Source: Nostoc punctiforme PCC 73102 (lineage in GTDB: Bacteria; Cyanobacteriota; Cyanobacteriia; Cyanobacteriales; Nostocaceae). From it: a DNA stretch of 32,000 nucleotides. The translations under genes and the position numbers were made by a program. Positions 9,898 to 23,221 of the stretch are shown piece after piece. Numbering within the stretch: position 1 is the first letter of the stretch; each line of letters opens with the position of its first letter. The DNA lies in contig NC_010628.1 of the NCBI RefSeq assembly GCF_000020025.1, positions 5,160,001-5,192,000 on the forward strand, read 5' to 3'. Below the pieces are notes generated by a model, which saw nothing but the letters and a program-made list of their open reading frames with translations, was not told the origin of the DNA and did not search any database.

Positions 9898-12800
9898 TTA
9901 ATTAGGCTTACCCGTAATTGTAAATGCTGCCCAGTAGTAAGGATGATTATAAAGATTTTTATCTGATGCCATTTTACTATTTCTATATAGTTGCGTCGCT
10001 AAATAAGTTTGAATCCGTAATTCTTCAGGATGCAGATTATTCAAAATATCTTCATACCATTTTGTCAGTTCTCCAGCAGTTAGTTCTTTCAGCCACCGTG
10101 TTGCTTCCGCTAAGGCAGTAACTGCTGATTTATTAAGCTGTAATCTCCGATAAAATTCTATCATTACCAAGGCACTAGCTGAAGATTCTACACTCCAGAG
10201 AGTACTAACTATATGAGGCACACCCTGACTTACAAAACTACTGGCTAAACTCACATATTCACTGCTGATAGTGTGGTTGTTAATACTTAAATTTTCACAC
10301 GCAGAGAGAGTAATCAGGTTGTAAGTTGATAGATTTTGTTGATAAATTTCATCTAGAGTCAGTTTTTCTTCACCTGCTAATGCTAATTCTGACTTTTTGG
10401 GTTCAGCTAAATTATTAGTGACATGACCTGTAAAATGAAAAATATTGTAATTATCAAACAAGGCATTTTCAACAATATTTTTTGTAGCTTCTGCTCCCTG
10501 AATTCGTTGGATATTATTGAACATCTGGCTCACAACTTCAGATTCGAGTTTGGCAAATTTTAGTGGAGGATAACCTGCACTTTCAGGATGTTCAACACTG
10601 AGCAATAACTGATTTTGCCATTGCCAAATATCTTCAGTTCTTATTGATAAACCTATTTGGGCACTAGGTAGATAGGTGACGGTGAAATTGGACTCCACAT
10701 TCGGCAACTCTTCTTGGGATGGGGAAGAAAGATGAAAAAGCGTATGAATGGGCAATCTGTACAAGTCGCGGTGAGGAATTAAAACCAGTTGGGTGATGCC
10801 TTCGAGTTCCTGGGCAATTGTGGAAATATTCAAGATGCCATACAACTGCACTAGCTTCTGTTCCATATCCACTCGCCAAGAATGCTGGCTTTTACTTTCT
10901 TTGTCTTGGGCTGTGGTGCGATATTCTTGGTATTGTTGATGCCAATCTTCTAGCCAATTTTCAAATTCAATTAGGCGTTGCACTGCTTCAGGTAGCGGCA
11001 ATTCATTGAGACGAATAGCGTCTTCTCCTAAAGGTATTGCCCCAGCATCTTGCATGGGTGTAAACAGGAGAATCGGTGATGGCGCTTGGTCTTTGAGAAT
11101 GAAAGTATGTAGGGCGACTGGACTAATATGCCAGTAAATAATTGCTGTTGTGGGATTAAATAGTTGTTGAATTGCGCCATAATGGGGCGAGTAAAAATTA
11201 TTATTCCAGCCAGAAAGTAGCCAGTTTAAACAAGCATTTTTGCCCTGTTCGGCAATTTCCCAAGCTTCAACTAAATCACCAGACTCTACTGCTAAATCAA
11301 CTGCCAATTGATCAAAGCCTGCAAATTTCAAAGCTAGCTGTTTTTTACTTTCGTCTGAGCGAGTCTCTTCACTCAGCAATTGTCGCAATAAATCTGTACC
11401 GCGTTGTAGCAATTCTTGAACTTGTGTTGTTTGTCCCAAACCCATCAGTACTTTGCTTAGAGATTGCAAAACCTCAAGGTGGAACAGGGGAAAATATTCT
11501 AGTGTCAGCGTTAACAACGCCTGATGGTACTCAGATGCAGCTTTGCGCCAATAATCGCGGGGATTGGGATGTTTCTTGCCTTGGTCGTAATAAGTATTAG
11601 CGATCGCCAGATGCAATCTACCCCAACCTTCTGGGTGGGTATCTGTCCGCAGATGTTTTAACCCTTCTTCGTAGCTGGCTAATTTTCCTTCGTAGCCGCC
11701 CTGTTGTAGGGCGGGATTTGCCGCCGTTATATTACTCGACAAATTCAGCAATGCGTCAGAATTTACTAAATTACCGATCGCAGTTCCCCGACCAATCCAA
11801 GCTTCCCAATAATCTTGTTTAATTTCCAAAGCGTTATCATAACAAGCGATCGCTTCGGCAAATTGTTCTAAATAAAACAGCGCTACTGCCTGATTATACC
11901 AAGCTAAGTGGAAGTCAGGTTTGATGGCGATCGCTTGGCGATAGGAAGCGATCGCTTCTTGGCGACGACCTAAGTTGTCTAATGCTATACCTCGGTTGTA
12001 CCAAGCTAAGTAGAAGTCGGCTTGAACTGAAAGGGCTTTATCCCAGGAGGCGATCGCTTCTGACCACCTTCCTAGATTAAACAGCACTACACCCCGGTCT
12101 ATCCAAACTTCGTGGTACTCTGGGTTAATTTCTAGGGCTTTGTCGTAGGATATAATCGCCTCTGCAAATTGTTCGCCTACAGCTAGGGCTATCCCTCGGT
12201 GATACCAGTTTTCCTGGTCTTCTGGTTCCAAATGCAGCGCTTGATCGTAACTATAAATAGCTTCTGGTAGCCAACCTAACTTCAGTAGCGCCAAACCCTT
12301 GCTAGACCAAGCTTCTTGGTAGTCTGGCTTGACTTCTATGGCTTTGTCAAAAGAAGCGATCGCTTCTTCAAAATATCCTAATTCCCCGAGAGTTCCACCC
12401 CGGTTGTACCAAGCTTTGTAGAAGTCGGGTTTTAGTTCTATGGCGGTTTCGTAAGATGCGATCGCTTCTTCAAAACGTTCTAAATGGAACAGTATCAAGC
12501 CTCGATTAAACCAATACTCTGAGAATTCAGGTTGAAGTTCAATAGCTCGATCGTAAGATGCGATCGCGCCTAACAAATCACCTGTTTTCGCTTGGCTTAG
12601 ACCTTGGTAAAACCATCCTTGAGCGTTAGTAATCGGATTATTGCTATGTCGCTCAATAATACCAGGAGAATTACTGCTTTGAACTGCCAAGTTAGAAGCA
12701 AGCTGCTGGACTAAATTGGTACTCTGATCCAATTTCACCCACAACTCATCTAATGTATTAGCTACATTTGGCTCTAAATTTGTCAAAGCGCTATCCCAGT

Positions 12801-13866
12801 TTTCCACTGAGGGAGAAGAAGTTGTTAATTCACTTCTTGGCCTAGTAGAAAGGAGATTTACTCCTGTTGTACTTTGAACAACTTCTTCATCATCGAACCT
12901 CAGTTGGGCTAATGAGGTGATTGAATCTTCCTTTGCGGGGAGAGGGAGATTTGCGGGTATTGTGGTTTGGGCTTCTTCCCTTTCATACTCCAATACCAGT
13001 TCCTCTAAATTTTCGGTGAATGTTTCCTCAAAAGAGACATTTTCAGATGCTGGCGTGATTGGTTCAACATCTGGCACATTATATTCCCATAACTGCTCAC
13101 CTAAGCTACGAATTAGCTCTTGCCCAGGCGAAATTGGGATAATTTCTTCATCGGTTGTGATTTCTACAACATCTGGCTCATCATACTCCCATAACTGCTC
13201 GCCTAAATTGCGGATTAGTTCTTCCCCAGGAGTGATTTCTACGACATCTGGCTCATCATACTCCCATAACTGCTCGCCTAAATTACGGATCAGTTCTTCC
13301 CCAGGAGTAGTTTCTATGACATCTGGCTCATCATACTCCCATAACTGCTCGCCTAAATTGCCGATCAGTTCTTCCCCAGGAGCGATTTCTACCCCATATT
13401 GTTCAGGAGTAATTTCTAAGCCCGCTTCTGGATAATTCTCCTCATCCTCTATCTGTGTAGGTGAGTTTTGCATCATTCGGATGCCAATGTCATAAGCAAC
13501 ATCTCCAATTCTGCCAACACCAAGTTCCCCCAATTGCACCATCTGTGATGCTAAAAGAGGATTCGGCGCAGGTGAAGCTAGCAAGCTTTCGCCAAACGTC
13601 ACCAACCAATCTATCCAGCGTTCAGCCGGAATTCGATTTTCGACCCGTTGCAGATACCTCAATGCCCACTGTCGTCCTCGTGCTTGATGCACGCCTTCTA
13701 ACAATTGGATAAACAATTGTTCCAGATCCGCATTGGTTAGTTCTGGTAGTATCTCCACCAGATTGTGTCCTCTTGCACCCTTGAGAGAACTAGCCTGCTT
13801 ACTTTCAATGAGGCGCTTTAAAAGCCTTTTAAGCGACTGCGATATCCGCCTGAGCATCTGCCACAC
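9898..13866 (-). CDS. Large multidomain protein: N-terminal module, WEY tandem repeats, 8 TPR repeats, a helical region and a C-terminal CHAT (caspase-like protease) domain
   Basis: The 1322-aa ORF has eight 34-aa TPRs with conserved (E)AIASY..A(I/L)E..P. The C-terminal CHAT hallmarks are LVLIPHRDLYRLPIHTLF, a His motif (FHFTGHV) and a Cys motif (ITLSACEN). Confidence 0.9.
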   Translation of the reverse strand: MWQMLRRISQSLKRLLKRLIESKQASSLKGARGHNLVEILPELTNADLEQLFIQLLEGVHQARGRQWALRYLQRVENRIPAERWIDWLVTFGESLLASPAPNPLLASQMVQLGELGVGRIGDVAYDIGIRMMQNSPTQIEDEENYPEAGLEITPEQYGVEIAPGEELIGNLGEQLWEYDEPDVIETTPGEELIRNLGEQLWEYDEPDVVEITPGEELIRNLGEQLWEYDEPDVVEITTDEEIIPISPGQELIRSLGEQLWEYNVPDVEPITPASENVSFEETFTENLEELVLEYEREEAQTTIPANLPLPAKEDSITSLAQLRFDDEEVVQSTTGVNLLSTRPRSELTTSSPSVENWDSALTNLEPNVANTLDELWVKLDQSTNLVQQLASNLAVQSSNSPGIIERHSNNPITNAQGWFYQGLSQAKTGDLLGAIASYDRAIELQPEFSEYWFNRGLILFHLERFEEAIASYETAIELKPDFYKAWYNRGGTLGELGYFEEAIASFDKAIEVKPDYQEAWSSKGLALLKLGWLPEAIYSYDQALHLEPEDQENWYHRGIALAVGEQFAEAIISYDKALEINPEYHEVWIDRGVVLFNLGRWSEAIASWDKALSVQADFYLAWYNRGIALDNLGRRQEAIASYRQAIAIKPDFHLAWYNQAVALFYLEQFAEAIACYDNALEIKQDYWEAWIGRGTAIGNLVNSDALLNLSSNITAANPALQQGGYEGKLASYEEGLKHLRTDTHPEGWGRLHLAIANTYYDQGKKHPNPRDYWRKAASEYHQALLTLTLEYFPLFHLEVLQSLSKVLMGLGQTTQVQELLQRGTDLLRQLLSEETRSDESKKQLALKFAGFDQLAVDLAVESGDLVEAWEIAEQGKNACLNWLLSGWNNNFYSPHYGAIQQLFNPTTAIIYWHISPVALHTFILKDQAPSPILLFTPMQDAGAIPLGEDAIRLNELPLPEAVQRLIEFENWLEDWHQQYQEYRTTAQDKESKSQHSWRVDMEQKLVQLYGILNISTIAQELEGITQLVLIPHRDLYRLPIHTLFHLSSPSQEELPNVESNFTVTYLPSAQIGLSIRTEDIWQWQNQLLLSVEHPESAGYPPLKFAKLESEVVSQMFNNIQRIQGAEATKNIVENALFDNYNIFHFTGHVTNNLAEPKKSELALAGEEKLTLDEIYQQNLSTYNLITLSACENLSINNHTISSEYVSLASSFVSQGVPHIVSTLWSVESSASALVMIEFYRRLQLNKSAVTALAEATRWLKELTAGELTKWYEDILNNLHPEELRIQTYLATQLYRNSKMASDKNLYNHPYYWAAFTITGKPN
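13077..13393 (-). repeat. In-frame tandem repeats inside the CHAT gene (three near-identical 75-bp units plus one longer degenerate unit)
   Basis: The units 13169-13243, 13244-13318 and 13319-13393 differ at only a few positions. Each encodes TPGEELIRNLGEQLWEYDEPDVVEI. A degenerate unit lies at 13077-13168. Confidence 0.9.
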
Positions 13867-13887
13867 TATTGGATTTTGTTTTTCTAG

Positions 13888-13893
13888 ATTGTA
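13888..13893 (-). promoter_or_regulatory. Candidate -10 box (TACAAT) of the CHAT gene
   Basis: The minus-strand GCTACAAT lies 21 nt upstream of the ATG. The same CGAT-GCTACAAT block occurs at the same distance upstream of the paralogue at 14748-14753. Confidence 0.3.
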
Positions 13894-14027
13894 GCCATCG
13901 TTGTGTTAAAAAAATCATCAATTACGTAAAAATCCATTAGATTAGGACAGCGCTTCCGTCGCAGGTTAGCAAAAAATATACCAAAATTCAAGAGTAAAGC
14001 ATTACAACGTTACAATTCCCGATTCGA

Positions 14028-14726
14028 CTAATTTTCTGTTTGCTCTGTAGTCGATTGACCAGCAGGATACAATTGATTTATCAATGCCTGGACAAGCACT
14101 TGTGGATCGTCTGTCTCAACGGCAAGCTGTTGGGCAATCTGCTGGCGTAAGTTTTCATCCTCCTGCAACATTACAAACAACTCTTCTAGGGTGACAGTTT
14201 GATATTCTCCCTCTGGGGGATTCTCTGGCGCATCTGCTGACTCTGATATGGGAGCGGTTGGCTCAGATTGTAAAGTCGTGCTAAAAGCATCTGGCCCTTC
14301 ATATTCCCAAATTGGTTCGCCTTGATTGCGTGTCAATAACTGCATTCCAATACTATAGGCAACATCTCCAATTTCTCCAATGTCCAACTCACCTAGTTGT
14401 ACTAGCCGTGCAGCTATTTCATTATTCGGTGTCGGTGATGCTAGCAATTTTTCACCAAAGCGCCCTAACCACTGAACCCAATCTTCAGTTGTAATCCGAT
14501 GTTCAATATTATGCAGCCACTTTTGCGCCCAGGCTTCCCCTCGTGCTTGATGTACTCCTTGCAACAGCTCGGTGAAGAGAAATTCCAAATCCGTATCGCT
14601 TAGGGGTGGTGCTGGTTCTTTTGGGATATTCCCTCTAGATTTTGAGACATTCTGTTTTCCACCGAACAAGCTCTGAAAAAGCTTTTTGAGCCATTGAAAT
14701 AGCCGCTTGAGCATCTGCTGCACCAT
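14028..14726 (-). CDS. Stand-alone paralogue of the N-terminal module of the adjacent CHAT/TPR protein
   Basis: The 232-aa ORF aligns by eye with residues 1-135 of the CHAT protein. Matches include a basic amphipathic N-terminus, DLE(F/Q)LF..LL.GVHQARG, W..W...FGE.LLASP.PN, QLGEL.(I/V)G.IGDVAY.IG and one WEY motif (GEPIWEYEGPD). Confidence 0.75.
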   Translation of the reverse strand: MVQQMLKRLFQWLKKLFQSLFGGKQNVSKSRGNIPKEPAPPLSDTDLEFLFTELLQGVHQARGEAWAQKWLHNIEHRITTEDWVQWLGRFGEKLLASPTPNNEIAARLVQLGELDIGEIGDVAYSIGMQLLTRNQGEPIWEYEGPDAFSTTLQSEPTAPISESADAPENPPEGEYQTVTLEELFVMLQEDENLRQQIAQQLAVETDDPQVLVQALINQLYPAGQSTTEQTEN

Positions 14727-14747
14727 CGAGTTTTGCTTATTTATAAA

Positions 14748-14753
14748 ATTGTA
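14748..14753 (-). promoter_or_regulatory. Candidate -10 box (TACAAT) of the N-module paralogue
   Basis: The minus-strand CGATCGCTACAAT lies 22 nt upstream of the ATG at 14726 and is paralogous to the block at 13888-13900. Confidence 0.3.
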
Positions 14754-15067
14754 GCGATCGCACTGGACTATGACGTTAGTTCTTTGTCATTTGTCATTAG
14801 TTCTTTTTTCCTAACTTCCGACTCTTGACAAGAACAAATGTACTAAATGCTATGCTATAATTCCGATACATTGATGTTGAAATCATAGTAAAAAATTATG
14901 ATCTGGTTGTTTGCTTTCCTGAGTGCCAAAATTGACGGCATTAGTTGAGTGTAAGCGCTATAGCAACATCGATGAAGAAAGCAGGTACGAGAGTTTAAAA
15001 TAATTGAATCCCAAACTCGACTCGGTGCTACTAATTAACGTTGAAAGGCATTGAAGTCTATTTTTCC

Positions 15068-17191
15068 ATGTCTTACGAACCCCTGCACCATAAATATCGC
15101 CCCAAAAGTTTTGCTGAACTCGTGGGACAAGAGGCGATCGCTACCACCCTCACGAATGCGATCGGCACATCCAAAATCGCCCCCGCCTATTTATTCACTG
15201 GGCCAAGAGGTACGGGGAAAACTTCTAGTGCCCGGATTTTAGCTAAATCTCTCAATTGTCTCAAAAGCGATCGCCCCACTGCTGAACCCTGCGGCGTGTG
15301 TGATGTTTGTCAAGGAATCACCAAGGGTTACGCCTTAGATGTAATTGAAATCGATGCTGCTAGTAACACTGGTGTCGATAATATCCGTGAGTTGATTGAA
15401 AAAGCCCAGTTTGCTCCTGTGCAGTGTCGTTACAAGGTTTATGTAATCGATGAATGTCACATGCTCAGTACCCAGGCATTCAATGCGCTACTTAAGACCC
15501 TAGAAGAGCCACCGAGACACGTAGTTTTTGTATTGGCGACAACAGACCCGCAACGGGTGTTACCAACGATTATTTCGCGCTGTCAAAGGTTTGATTTTAG
15601 ACGTATTCAATTAGAGGCGATGGTTAAGCATTTAAGTGCGATCGCCTCTAAAGAAAATATTCATATTTCACCCGAAGCTGTAACCCTGGTAGCCCAACTT
15701 TCTCAGGGAGGGTTGCGAGATGCCGAAAGCTTGCTCGATCAATTGGGTTTGTTAGCAGGTGTTGTGACACCAGATAGAGTTTGGGATTTGGTCGGGACGG
15801 TAAGCGAACAGGACTTGCTGGGACTTCTAAATGCGATCGCTCAAGATAAACCCGAAGCAGTTCTTGACAGTACCCACAAAATTCTCGATCGTGGTCGAGA
15901 ACCCCTAACTTTTCTGCAAAATCTCGCCGCTTTCTACCGCGATTTACTCATAGCCAAAACAGCACCCAACCGCCACGATTTGGTTGCTTGTACTCAGCAA
16001 ACCTGGACGGCGTTGGTTGAGTTTGCTCAATACTTCGATATGACCATGATTTTGGCAGGACAGGAACACCTGCGAAAAGCTGAAGTGCAAATTAAAAACA
16101 GTACTCAGCCGCGTTTATGGTTGGAAGTAACATTACTAGGATTGTTACCTAGTGCAACGACGAATATTCAACCACAAGCCCCAAATATCGCGCCGCGAGT
16201 TATCCCACCTGCTGTATCTCCAAGCTATCCTCCAGCAGTTACCCAAAATCATGCAGTCTCTTCTTTACCGGTAGCGGAACCGCAAACAAATCATAATTCT
16301 ACACTTCGACAAGGCTCTGTTACCACAAACCATCATGTAGCGATTGCCCAAAATCAGCCTGTCACTTCATCTGGCGCAGTTGAACAGCAAAAAAATCACA
16401 ATTCTGCTGCAAACTCAGTTTCACCACCAACCCCAGAACCTGTTGCTGTTCCTGTACCATCTGCGATCGTTGAAGCAGTAACTTCAGAAGTTGTTGGAGA
16501 AGCACAATATGATTTAACTCAGGTTTGGCAACAGGTGCTTGCTAACCTCCAGCCAAAATCAAGGCAAGAAATGCTGCGTCAAATGAGCCAACTTATAGAG
16601 TTCGACGGTGTTATGGCTCGAATTGCTATCAAACAGGCATGGTATGACAAGGGTAAATCTTATCTACCGATGATTACGGCAGCTTTCCAGCAGACTTTCC
16701 AGCGTGAAATCCAGATAAATATAGAAAAAGGAATTTCTTCAAACTCCACTTCAGCTAAAAAAAATCCTCCGCCAAAAGACTCTAGTCGCGTTCAGCAACC
16801 AGCTACTCCTAGTTACAACCAGCAAATTTCGCCTCCAGCGCTAGTACCACAGCCAGCAACGCCAGCGCCACTAAGAACCGAGCCGCTAGCAAAAAATGGA
16901 AATGGAGCAAATGGAAATGGAGCAAATGGAAATGGAGTAAATGGAAATGGAGTAAATGGAAACGGGGCAAATAGAAATGGGGCAAATAGAAATGGGGCGC
17001 AAACTTTGCCTCCACCGCCACAGCGAACACCCGCACCTGATTGGGAAATTGATGAAGTAGCGATCGCAGCTCAACGTCTAGCAGAATTCTTCAACGGACA
17101 AATTATCCGTTTTACTGAGGATTCAACAGAATTCTCCGATTCCATAGCTACACCTGAATGGGTAGAGGAATCGGAAGTTGATGATGAATAA
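15068..17191 (+). CDS. dnaX: DNA polymerase III gamma/tau subunit DnaX
   Basis: The ORF has Walker A (GPRGTGKTS), a Cys-rich zinc module (CLKSDRPTAEPCGVCDVCQ), Walker B (VIDECHML) and an SRC motif (SRCQRFDF). A long P/Q/N-rich linker is followed by a conserved C-terminus. The start is taken at the ATG at 15068 (MSYEPLHHKYRP); a TTG at 15041 is less likely. Confidence 0.9.
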   Translation: MSYEPLHHKYRPKSFAELVGQEAIATTLTNAIGTSKIAPAYLFTGPRGTGKTSSARILAKSLNCLKSDRPTAEPCGVCDVCQGITKGYALDVIEIDAASNTGVDNIRELIEKAQFAPVQCRYKVYVIDECHMLSTQAFNALLKTLEEPPRHVVFVLATTDPQRVLPTIISRCQRFDFRRIQLEAMVKHLSAIASKENIHISPEAVTLVAQLSQGGLRDAESLLDQLGLLAGVVTPDRVWDLVGTVSEQDLLGLLNAIAQDKPEAVLDSTHKILDRGREPLTFLQNLAAFYRDLLIAKTAPNRHDLVACTQQTWTALVEFAQYFDMTMILAGQEHLRKAEVQIKNSTQPRLWLEVTLLGLLPSATTNIQPQAPNIAPRVIPPAVSPSYPPAVTQNHAVSSLPVAEPQTNHNSTLRQGSVTTNHHVAIAQNQPVTSSGAVEQQKNHNSAANSVSPPTPEPVAVPVPSAIVEAVTSEVVGEAQYDLTQVWQQVLANLQPKSRQEMLRQMSQLIEFDGVMARIAIKQAWYDKGKSYLPMITAAFQQTFQREIQINIEKGISSNSTSAKKNPPPKDSSRVQQPATPSYNQQISPPALVPQPATPAPLRTEPLAKNGNGANGNGANGNGVNGNGVNGNGANRNGANRNGAQTLPPPPQRTPAPDWEIDEVAIAAQRLAEFFNGQIIRFTEDSTEFSDSIATPEWVEESEVDDE
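16895..16999 (+). repeat. Seven tandem 15-bp units inside dnaX encoding (NGNGA)n
   Basis: The units start at 16895, 16910, 16925, 16940, 16955, 16970 and 16985 (aatggaaatggagca and variants). The array is in frame and gives NGNGANGNGANGNGVNGNGVNGNGANRNGANRNGA. Confidence 0.95.
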
Positions 17192-21287: not shown

Positions 21288-21920
21288 CTAACTATTTTCT
21301 AAGCTTAATAAACTACTAATCAGTTTAGGCAAGCCACTACAGCAGGGATTTGAATGCTCAGATAATTCATTCCGTTCTATCTGCTTTGCCATCTTTTCAG
21401 CACGTTGAATTGCTTGTTCAGTTAATGATTTCAAGGGTTTTGGATATAAGCACATTGATTTGTCATAGTTGGGTATATGCTTGCCGAGTAAATTAACTAA
21501 CCTATCACGATTGATTTGTGCAAAATGGTCTTGAAAGTGAATTAGATACCAGAGTTCAAAACAAGGATTTGTAATTGCGAGATTAATCTTTTGGCTTGTA
21601 GCCCGATTTATTGCACTTTGCCAATTTTCCAGACTCTTTTCAATATGCTCATCTCCATCAAAAACAGCCCAAGCCTCATCTTCTTTACTCCACTGCTGGT
21701 TATCTTTTCTCTGCTGTCGTTCTTCGATGAGTCTTTCAACAATGCTACGTGGATCAGTTTTGTTTTGATGAGGCAATACAATAATATCTAAAGTTGATGA
21801 ACGTAATTCATTGCGGATACTATTGAAATAAATTGGTTCTGTTTTACTTCCTTCACAAGCAATTAGTATTTTCTGAGCAATATTCCTGCTAGGTGGGCGA
21901 CGATTTAACTTTCTTGGCAC
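21288..21920 (-). CDS. RloB-like (AbiLii-like, Toprim-related) protein
   Basis: The 210-aa ORF carries the family hallmarks ILIACEGSKTEPIYF, an acidic AVFDGDEH motif and NPCFELWYLIHF. The GTG start at 21918-21920 overlaps the upstream ATPase gene by 16 nt. Confidence 0.85.
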   Translation of the reverse strand: MPRKLNRRPPSRNIAQKILIACEGSKTEPIYFNSIRNELRSSTLDIIVLPHQNKTDPRSIVERLIEERQQRKDNQQWSKEDEAWAVFDGDEHIEKSLENWQSAINRATSQKINLAITNPCFELWYLIHFQDHFAQINRDRLVNLLGKHIPNYDKSMCLYPKPLKSLTEQAIQRAEKMAKQIERNELSEHSNPCCSGLPKLISSLLSLENS

Positions 21921-23221
21921 TGCTCATCACCCTGTAAAATCATTTCCTCTTCAGATGGGAGAAACGGAACGGCTCCAAAACGACCATCTAAATAAGCTTT
22001 ATCAATTGCCAAATCATTTCGCACATGGAAATCAGTCAAAGGATACAACTCAGTGCTTTGATCATCTCGCTTTTGTGTAAACCAAATTTGATCGCGGCGC
22101 AATAAGTTATTTCTTTGTAATGTATTATCGTGACTAGTTAAAATAAATTGAGCGCGTTTGGGATTTGTTTTAGGATTTTGAAATCTTCTGATAATACTTC
22201 TTACAATATTAGGATGAATGTTTGTGCCTAATTCGTCGACAATTGTCAATCCTCCTATTTTAAGAGCTAGTACTATCCGAAATGCTAAACTAAATAAGCG
22301 TTGAGTTCCAAGAGATTCTTCATCAAAAAGCCAAGCCACTAAATTACCGTCATGGGTATTATGTATAGCATATATATTGTAGTCACTTGGATCATCATGT
22401 TTCTTTACCATATCGATTCTTGACAATCCTGTGTCAAATTTTAGTACAATTTTCAATGCTTCTTCAAAAATTTCATTTACTATGGGATTATCAGTACCTT
22501 GCAGTAATGTAATCGAGGTAGTATCGTACTTTTCATTTCCCAAATTAATTCCAAGCCAGCGAGCTTTTAACCAGCGTAAAAAAGACTCAATTACATCTAC
22601 CTTTAGTTTTACTAATGTACTAATAAATAAATCATTTTCTCTAATATTATCCTGGAGTTGATTATGGGAGCCAGCAAAATCGTCCCCAGTTTTCCAGATA
22701 AATTTTTTACTAATTTCATCCCATTGACGATTAAATAAACGACGAGTCCGCTTAGTTGTGTTTAAAGCATAATCTAACTTTTCTGAGATTATATGATTTT
22801 GATTGATTACTAGGGAATAAGTATAAATATTATTATCTAACAAAGTTCTTAATTCAAATCTTGTAGGTTTTTGAGCAGAGATGCTATCTAACTTGAAAGG
22901 ATCTAGTTTTACATGTTTTAAAATTCTCTGGAATGCAACTGCTTGTTGTGTGCCATAAGCCATCATGATTAGTAGATAATCCAGAGCTTGGATAACATTA
23001 CTCTTGCCTGAAGCATTAGCTCCAAAAATTGCAAGAACAGGTAAAAGTTCAATGTCCCACCCTTCAACATGATATCCAGGTGCAATTTCATGATCTGACT
23101 TTACCCGTTTACGTTTGCTGCTTTGGCTTGTCTGACGATCGCTTTGTTTTTGAGCAACCGCACTTAGGGTTACAGGTTCTTTAATTGAGCGGTAGTTTTC
23201 GACTGTAAAATCTACAAGCAT
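21905..23221 (-). CDS. ABC-type (AAA_15/AAA_21-like) ATPase, AbiLi/AriA-like
   Basis: The 438-aa ORF starts MLVDFTVENYRSIKE. It has Walker A (GANASGKSN), a signature-like ESLGTQRLFSLA, Walker B (LTIVDELGTNIHP) and an H-loop (ILTSHD). Confidence 0.85.
   Translation of the reverse strand: MLVDFTVENYRSIKEPVTLSAVAQKQSDRQTSQSSKRKRVKSDHEIAPGYHVEGWDIELLPVLAIFGANASGKSNVIQALDYLLIMMAYGTQQAVAFQRILKHVKLDPFKLDSISAQKPTRFELRTLLDNNIYTYSLVINQNHIISEKLDYALNTTKRTRRLFNRQWDEISKKFIWKTGDDFAGSHNQLQDNIRENDLFISTLVKLKVDVIESFLRWLKARWLGINLGNEKYDTTSITLLQGTDNPIVNEIFEEALKIVLKFDTGLSRIDMVKKHDDPSDYNIYAIHNTHDGNLVAWLFDEESLGTQRLFSLAFRIVLALKIGGLTIVDELGTNIHPNIVRSIIRRFQNPKTNPKRAQFILTSHDNTLQRNNLLRRDQIWFTQKRDDQSTELYPLTDFHVRNDLAIDKAYLDGRFGAVPFLPSEEEMILQGDEQCQES

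Follow-up and report, generated by a model that had tools for sequence, protein, structure and literature searches.

The stretch of Nostoc punctiforme PCC 73102 DNA analyzed here, which is 32,000 nucleotides (nt) long and is called the window throughout, carries on its minus strand a small gene followed, after a spacer of 170 nt, by a large gene encoding a protein with tetratricopeptide repeats (TPRs) and a CHAT caspase-fold protease domain. Our main finding is that the small gene arose by an ancient tandem duplication that copied the whole pre-TPR region of the adjacent TPR-CHAT gene. The longest open reading frames (ORFs) on this strand are 14028-14726 (232 amino acids (aa)) and 9898-13866 (1322 aa, GTG start). 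We place the true starts at inner ATGs, at 14714 in the small gene (MLKR...) and at 13857 in the CHAT gene (MLRR...), because in several Nostoc genomes an in-frame TAG or a frameshift separates the upstream ATG or GTG from the inner ATG, because Calothrix PCC 7507 and Cylindrospermum NIES-4074 have an in-frame TAG ahead of the CHAT ATG, and because the inner methionine is the first residue of all members of the protein family described below. The two genes are delimited as follows.

14028-14714, minus strand: small gene, a module-only paralogue, 228 aa from its true ATG (ORF list, with the start fixed by orthologues)
9898-13857, minus strand: TPR-CHAT protease gene, 1319 aa from its true ATG (Pfam TPR families and CHAT PF12770)

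The two proteins align by BLASTP with E=6e-41 and 42% identity across residues 4-151 of the small protein, and their 143-residue modules, compared without gaps, are 49% identical. This confirms the original prediction, made from the sequence alone, that a 232-aa gene upstream on the same strand matches the N terminus of the CHAT protein; the shared sequence blocks that it listed are all present, as is the single WEY motif, which reads IWEYEGPD. The match had been confined to roughly the first 135 residues of the CHAT protein and is real, but the similarity spans the whole pre-TPR region. Indeed, a second, weaker BLASTP segment links residues 179-213 of the small protein to residues 371-405 of the CHAT protein (E=2e-4), and a profile comparison by hhalign, using alignments of 81 orthologues, backs it, pairing the C-terminal helices 173-206 with CHAT residues 366-399 (E=1.7e-5). 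The CHAT segment matched in this way sits directly ahead of the first TPR. These second matches make the small protein colinear with the entire pre-TPR region, and the view of it as a tandem paralogue of the N-terminal, non-catalytic part only is upheld.

Five parts make up the shared pre-TPR region: an amphipathic basic N-terminal helix, a disordered linker, a five-helix bundle, a tryptophan-acidic WEY motif and a short helical segment. Their positions in the two genes, together with those of the other domains of the large protein, are given below; models are from AlphaFold2 (AF2), with confidence expressed as predicted local distance difference test (pLDDT).

14661-14714, minus strand: N-terminal amphipathic basic helix of the small protein, MLKRLFQWLKKLFQSLFG, with the family hallmark ML[KR]xIWQWLKxLFxRLFG; helical in the AF2 model
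14319-14597, minus strand: five-helix bundle of the small protein, core of the shared module (AF2 pLDDT 80-91; helices 44-136 in the 232-aa numbering)
14289-14312, minus strand: single WEY motif IWEYEGPD, tryptophan-acidic, which ends the module; IWEY[DE]GPD recurs in many distant members
14070-14189, minus strand: three short C-terminal helices of the small protein (AF2 pLDDT about 80), homologous to the CHAT segment before the TPRs
13459-13857, minus strand: N-terminal module of the CHAT protein, comprising helix, linker and bundle (hidden Markov model E=1e-47; AF2 bundle pLDDT about 80-87)
13157-13392, minus strand: 75-nt tandem repeats coding LGEQLWEYDEPDV units (Tandem Repeats Finder: period 75, 3.1 copies, 92% matches)
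12661-12762, minus strand: pre-TPR helix, TLDELWVKLDQSTNLVQQLASNLAVQ, counterpart of the C-terminal helices of the small protein (ratio of nonsynonymous to synonymous substitution rates (dN/dS) 0.117)
11770-12636, minus strand: TPR array (Pfam; AF2 pLDDT above 93)
9910-10848, minus strand: CHAT caspase-fold protease domain (PF12770), with the putative catalytic His1141 and Cys1187 retained

The AF2 model of the small protein, built from a 96-sequence alignment with a mean pLDDT of 69 and numbered on the 232-aa frame, predicts a helix at residues 2-21, disorder at 22-43, the five-helix bundle at 44-136, disorder at 137-179 and three short helices at 180-219. The N-terminal helix is strongly amphipathic and cationic in the module proteins (hydrophobic moment 0.64-0.86, net charge +4 to +5, permutation p=0.002); that of the small protein has a moment of 0.64 and a charge of +4. 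In Escherichia coli, MinD ends in the membrane-targeting sequence ...FLKRLFGG. Like this helix, the Nostoc helix is short, cationic, amphipathic and rich in Leu, Phe and Trp, and ends in LFG(G), a likeness of composition and motif only; unlike it, the Nostoc helix is N-terminal.

In the large protein, the CHAT domain is recognized with E=3.5e-41 (142 bits versus a cut-off of 24), and eight or more TPRs occupy about residues 415-690. It carries four WEY units versus one in the small protein; most of the four lie in the 75-nt tandem repeats and the fourth lies just beyond the array. Among 81 CHAT orthologues the copy number varies from 0 to 5 through a strain-variable 75-nt repeat encoding WEYDEPD, in a region predicted to be disordered (AF2 pLDDT below 50). 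Among Nostoc strains, identity is only about 70% in the pre-TPR region of the CHAT protein versus about 92% in its CHAT domain. The succession of a TPR array and a CHAT caspase fold with conserved His and Cys is shared with other TPR-CHAT proteases, such as Csx29 of the type III-E CRISPR Craspase, and separase is a distant relative; unlike Csx29, the Nostoc protein is encoded without CRISPR or gRAMP context. To our knowledge, no description of Csx29 mentions a counterpart of the family-specific N-terminal module or of the long disordered repeats.

The small gene is real and functional, and is under purifying selection across Nostocales. All 81 orthologues are intact, start with ATG, encode 224-242 aa and contain exactly one WEY motif. 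The dN/dS is 0.135 overall, with values of 0.06 in the N-terminal helix, 0.09 in the bundle and 0.05 in the C-terminal helices, and looser linkers. A wider search returned 579 homologues of the small protein, of which the best 120, from sources that include Nostoc, Desmonostoc, Calothrix and Cylindrospermum, are 199-238 aa long (nearly all 220-238) and are all annotated as hypothetical. The CHAT orthologues are also intact in 81 cases out of 81; one of them, at locus L031, appeared truncated, and this was traced to a 100-N gap in the assembly. The putative catalytic His1141 and Cys1187, a pair assigned by motif position, are kept in 79 of 80 Nostoc orthologues. The caspase-fold protease is probably active, and this conservation implies that an activity exists to regulate.

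The start of both genes has a further feature. Divergence at four-fold degenerate sites among the 80 Nostoc orthologues is 0.04-0.10 in the first 45 codons or so versus 0.2-0.35 further in (windows 13722-13857 and 14580-14714), that is, two- to five-fold below the rest, in both paralogues. An overlapping antisense gene was rejected as the cause, as antisense frames are not kept open, and gene conversion does not account for it either. As for an RNA element in the leader or 5' coding region, Rfam gave no match, the single-sequence fold had z=+1.1 and the covariation term of the alignment fold was unfavorable.

The module shared by the two proteins belongs to a larger set. A profile search of 1.84 billion representatives yielded 352 module clusters at 50% identity, and among the matches listed the module lies at the extreme N terminus in nearly all clusters. 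The best 150 cluster representatives display three architectures only: the module alone (some of these being surely contig fragments), module and TPRs (about 300-570 aa), and module, TPRs and CHAT (about 870-1490 aa). Wherever a source organism is named, it is a filamentous cyanobacterium (Nostocales, Lyngbya, Capilliphycus, Laspinema, Desertifilum, Kamptonema, Oscillatoria and Potamolinea); at least three members occur in Calothrix PCC 7507. The family signature consists of M-L-[KR]-x-I-W-Q-W-L-K-x-L-F-x-R-L-F-G, a linker rich in Ser, Pro and Arg, the block PLxDxDYEFLFxQLLEGV...W..WL.RFGERLLASPxPNxELAxRMVxLGE and, frequently, a final IWEY[DE]GPD. Pfam, NCBIfam and PADLOC gave no match to the module, and Pfam-A run on the module and pre-TPR region was empty even at E<=10. 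A profile search of the PDB returned nothing below E=0.25; Foldseek of the AF2 model against the PDB gave a best E of 0.65, its weak matches being generic TPR-like helical proteins. These TPR-like matches are insignificant, the module has no Pfam TPR match, and hhalign of the bundle against the TPR array of the same protein gave a probability of 0.75%, so that a divergent or cryptic TPR was rejected. Judged from its sequence, the module is an undescribed domain family that heads TPR and TPR-CHAT proteins of filamentous cyanobacteria. In one clade of the family, 409-aa module and TPR genes lie directly upstream of a gene for an FtsH-type AAA protease, with an overlap of about 10 nt and an operon layout (locus L130, 187-3368; also L109, L111, L112, L114, L115, L119, L123-L125, L129, L136 and L139).

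Within Nostocales, the two genes are found together. The small gene precedes the CHAT gene in 80 of 80 Nostoc genome loci, and the pair is also present in Calothrix PCC 7507, in Cylindrospermum NIES-4074 and in a Fischerella metagenome-assembled genome, and the two have neighboring locus tags in Scytonema NUACC21 and strain HT-58-2. What follows CHAT downstream varies between Nostocales families (recR, thioredoxin, DUF4114, P-type ATPase). In neighbor-joining trees of the module, which carry no support values, the Nostocales small-protein clade is sister to the module, TPR and CHAT clade that holds the neighbor. Nucleotide identity between the two modules is 0.6035 within genomes versus 0.6027 between genomes, and gene conversion between the paralogues was accordingly rejected. 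Together, the sister clades and the equal identities point to a single duplication that preceded the Nostocales radiation. The module of the small protein is 49% identical to the adjacent CHAT copy, 58-62% to other clusters and 70-80% to its orthologues in other genera.

Each gene is preceded by a conserved leader box.

14748-14760, minus strand: small-gene leader box, CGATCGCTACAAT, a -10-like TACAAT abutting a HIP1 site (GCGATCGC), 33 nt ahead of the ATG
13888-13900, minus strand: CHAT-gene leader box, CGATGGCTACAAT, 30 nt ahead of the ATG

The 13-mer CGAT(G/C)GCTACAAT has exact matches at these two sites only in the 32-kb window, where 0.07 would be expected by chance. The box of both genes is practically invariant in 80 Nostoc genomes, GCTACAAT has kept its distance from the ATG in Calothrix PCC 7507 and Cylindrospermum NIES-4074, and the small-gene box is retained in Fischerella. 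In many distant members of the family, a CTAnAAT box lies 33-38 nt ahead of the ATG and a G-rich (A/G)GGKGC..AG element directly before it (for example L090-L093, L096, L102, L104, L113 and L135), which makes the leader layout a family trait. A simple sigma-70 scan called neither leader site, as a -35 consensus is absent, and the -10 assignment therefore rests on conservation; a simple scan for an intrinsic terminator between the two genes called none. The phylogenetic footprint of a conserved -10-like box at each gene supports the earlier suggestion that each keeps a promoter of its own. The box had been placed 21-22 nt upstream of each ATG; it is present, but the distances from the real ATGs are 33 and 30 nt, the 21 nt being counted from the starts of the longest ORFs, one of which is a GTG. 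Upstream of the CHAT gene, a perfect palindrome, TTACGTAA, lies at about 13931-13938 of the window (minus strand), 30 nt upstream of the TACAAT box, and a block TTACGTAATT(G/C)ATGATTTTTTTAACAC is near-invariant in 80 Nostoc genomes, Calothrix and Cylindrospermum; the palindrome block could be a regulator-binding site.

What might a free-standing copy of the pre-TPR region do? Prodomain-only duplicates that adjoin CASP1, namely COP, INCA and ICEBERG, act as decoys (PMC3775265). Like these CARD-only proteins (COP/CARD16, INCA/CARD17, ICEBERG/CARD18), the Nostoc small protein is a tandem duplicate encoded beside its parent caspase-fold protease and shares only its N-terminal, non-catalytic region. 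The differences are that the CARD-only proteins are of recent origin (primates), with up to 97% identity to the parent, whereas the Nostoc pair is older than the Nostocales radiation and shares 49% identity, and that the shared Nostoc domain is no CARD or death fold. By this analogy we tentatively propose, rating it somewhat short of an even chance, that the small protein is a non-catalytic co-assembly subunit or a competitor that tunes the CHAT protease. The module would be a targeting or assembly head: its N-terminal helix would tether the protein to the membrane or to a partner helix, membrane binding being suggested by helix composition, and the bundle would either self-associate or contact a common partner. 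The small protein could then reach the site or partner of the protease while having neither the TPR sensor nor the catalytic domain, and may thus act as a co-assembly subunit or competitor. Such coupling is favored by colinear homology along the whole small protein, by a single old duplication with no concerted evolution, by the N-terminal position of the module and its restriction to TPR or TPR-CHAT tails, by a leader layout common to the family, by retention of the pair across several Nostocales families, by the intact state of the small gene under selection, by the kept His and Cys of the protease, by separate conserved promoter-like boxes and by an amphipathic, cationic N-terminal helix. 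A broader principle, in which a membrane-tethered head module and a free-standing front end would control assembly or activation of a caspase-fold protease in Nostocales, as a bacterial counterpart of CARD-only decoys, and in which linkage to dnaX might tie this control to the cell cycle, seems to us unlikely.

Several observations weigh against coupling. No second module gene was found near any of 60 metagenomic loci from other family clades, within the flanks on hand. In Fischerella sp. JS2, dnaX and the small gene are kept without an adjacent CHAT gene, the place of which is taken by a TnpB gene and groEL. The divergent neighbor dnaX (15041-17191, plus strand; intergenic region 14727-15040) is at least as conserved beside the small gene as CHAT is, and in distant clades module or module and TPR genes are also divergent beside dnaX (L088/L089, L113, L122 and L140). 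Finally, the AF2 model of CHAT residues 1-760 docks nothing onto the TPRs, in a prediction where residues 135-405 have pLDDT below 50 and the linker is entirely of low confidence. Linkage to dnaX predates the small gene/CHAT pair and is more widespread; as it is as conserved as the CHAT linkage and occurs in other clades, the synteny may be historical rather than functional. From the absence of pairs at the 60 loci and the existence of lone or dnaX-linked relatives, it follows that the tandem pair is one lineage-specific duplication and no recurring design of the family.

These same observations feed the explanation that the small protein is an independent paralogue that has taken on its own function, such as that of a scaffold at the membrane or a binder of another partner, and that stands beside CHAT through inherited synteny only. 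Module-only and module and TPR genes are solitary elsewhere, including a module-only protein of Capilliphycus in an unrelated gene context (L083), the paralogues show no gene conversion, and each gene has its own promoter-like box. Moreover, two old paralogues at 49% identity, unlike the recent, near-identical CARD-only proteins, are compatible with diverged independent roles. Such independence is harder to reconcile with the survival of the pair in several Nostocales families though the genes downstream of CHAT vary, and with the conservation of all four homologous pieces in both proteins, which is expected if the same partner is addressed. Somewhat doubtful when taken by itself, independent function is nearly as likely as coupling. 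A different kind of regulation would be that of a securin-like substrate or pseudosubstrate. Separase, which is related to CHAT proteases, is restrained by a disordered pseudosubstrate; likewise, the disordered, acidic WEY[DE]xPD part of the small protein might sit in the TPR groove or the CHAT active site, being cleaved or inhibiting, and the WEYDEPD repeats of the protease might do the same in cis. The motif is present in all 81 small orthologues and as 0-5 75-nt repeat units in the protease, it ends in D-x-x-D, a caspase-like pattern, and the KLC2 TPR-peptide structure 3zfw is among the weak Foldseek matches. It also has the general form of the tryptophan-acidic TPR ligands of kinesin light chain (PMC5450233), with a central Trp, acidic flanks, a disordered stretch, multiple copies and a TPR-based family. 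The likeness is, however, one of form only: the kinesin motifs are eukaryotic, and the Nostoc motif has its hydrophobic residue at W-1 rather than W-2. Many family members have no WEY motif, and because AF2 predicts no docking, in a region with pLDDT below 50, this variant has no computational support; we consider it improbable. As for the possibility that a partial duplication left a relic without function, or that the ORF was mis-called, the small gene has neither catalytic domain nor annotation, but its 81 intact orthologues, its dN/dS, its conservation across Nostocales genera and its conserved leader and start codon refute that reading.

The original prediction had interpreted the shared module as an adaptor comparable to the effector-associated domains (EADs) or death-like domains of bacterial conflict systems, which would recruit the CHAT effector through homotypic contacts with the small protein. 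EADs are small, non-enzymatic and mostly helical, are carried by a core NTP-dependent component (VMAP, iSTAND, Ubl or GAP1) and by varied effector or signaling domains, and have adjacent copies that are mutually closest; CHAT is a typical effector of these systems (PMC7159879). The Nostoc arrangement resembles EAD1-10 and the bacterial death-like domains (bDLD; Kaur, Burroughs, Iyer, Aravind 2020) in that a multicellular bacterium has two neighboring genes whose products both carry a small helical, non-enzymatic domain at one end, one product also having a CHAT effector, and the AF2 bundle of about 95 aa with no catalytic motifs upholds this part of the comparison. In other respects the analogy fails. 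No vWA, MoxR, GTPase or STAND gene lies in the locus; none of the 150 cluster representatives has the module fused to an NTPase, another effector or a signaling domain, its contexts being limited to the module alone, TPR and TPR-CHAT; the adjacent copies are not mutually closest but belong to two old sister clades; and no recurrent pairing occurs in other clades. Neither Pfam-A at E<=10 nor PADLOC matched a described EAD or Death model, and a death fold was rejected on the absence of Foldseek matches in the PDB below E=0.65 and on a bundle of five helices versus six, in a model of overall pLDDT 69. The setting is also a housekeeping region (holA, recR, dnaX, a GT2 glycosyltransferase), slowly evolving and vertically inherited, rather than a variable island. 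Only the small helical character being shared, the likeness to EADs is one of arrangement and not of membership; the adaptor interpretation is partly supported overall, and we give little credence to homotypic recruitment as such. A toxin-antitoxin-like pair was likewise rejected, given a spacer of 170 nt here and of about 140-2000 nt in orthologues, the -10-like box proper to the CHAT gene, vertical inheritance and the housekeeping context.

The surroundings of the pair have features of their own. Loci with a module-family gene divergent to dnaX include L081, L082, L084 and L085. In Fischerella sp. JS2 (L084, 8748-9896), an IS605-family TnpB gene occupies the CHAT position of other Nostocales, which points to loss or relocation of the CHAT gene through a rearrangement. 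The 3' part of dnaX in the window (16800-17050) encodes a GNGAN/GNGVN repeat tract, and the dnaX genes of Calothrix PCC 7507 and Cylindrospermum carry an intein that is absent from dnaX in this window. Further away, at 21288-23221 on the minus strand, lies an AbiLi/AbiLii-like abortive-infection pair with overlapping frames, made of a 438-aa AAA ATPase (PADLOC AbiLi, E=1.6e-83) and a 210-aa partner (AbiLii, E=5.3e-25).

Caspase-fold proteases are abundant in multicellular cyanobacteria, and almost nothing is known of their localization or restraint. We regard the arrangement described here as a bacterial variant of the theme of prodomain-only paralogues, built on a domain family that is itself undescribed. 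This N-terminal module, unannotated so far, is now defined, and the locus supplies a natural, conserved, protease-less copy of the regulatory region. If there is no coupling between the two proteins, the pair is an ordinary old duplication, and the chief gain is a newly defined domain family. Should the small protein prove to bind the protease or compete with it, the CARD-only regulators of caspase-1 would have a parallel in prokaryotes, and a single gene of 228 aa would then offer a simple genetic handle on the function of a conserved CHAT protease of Nostoc.

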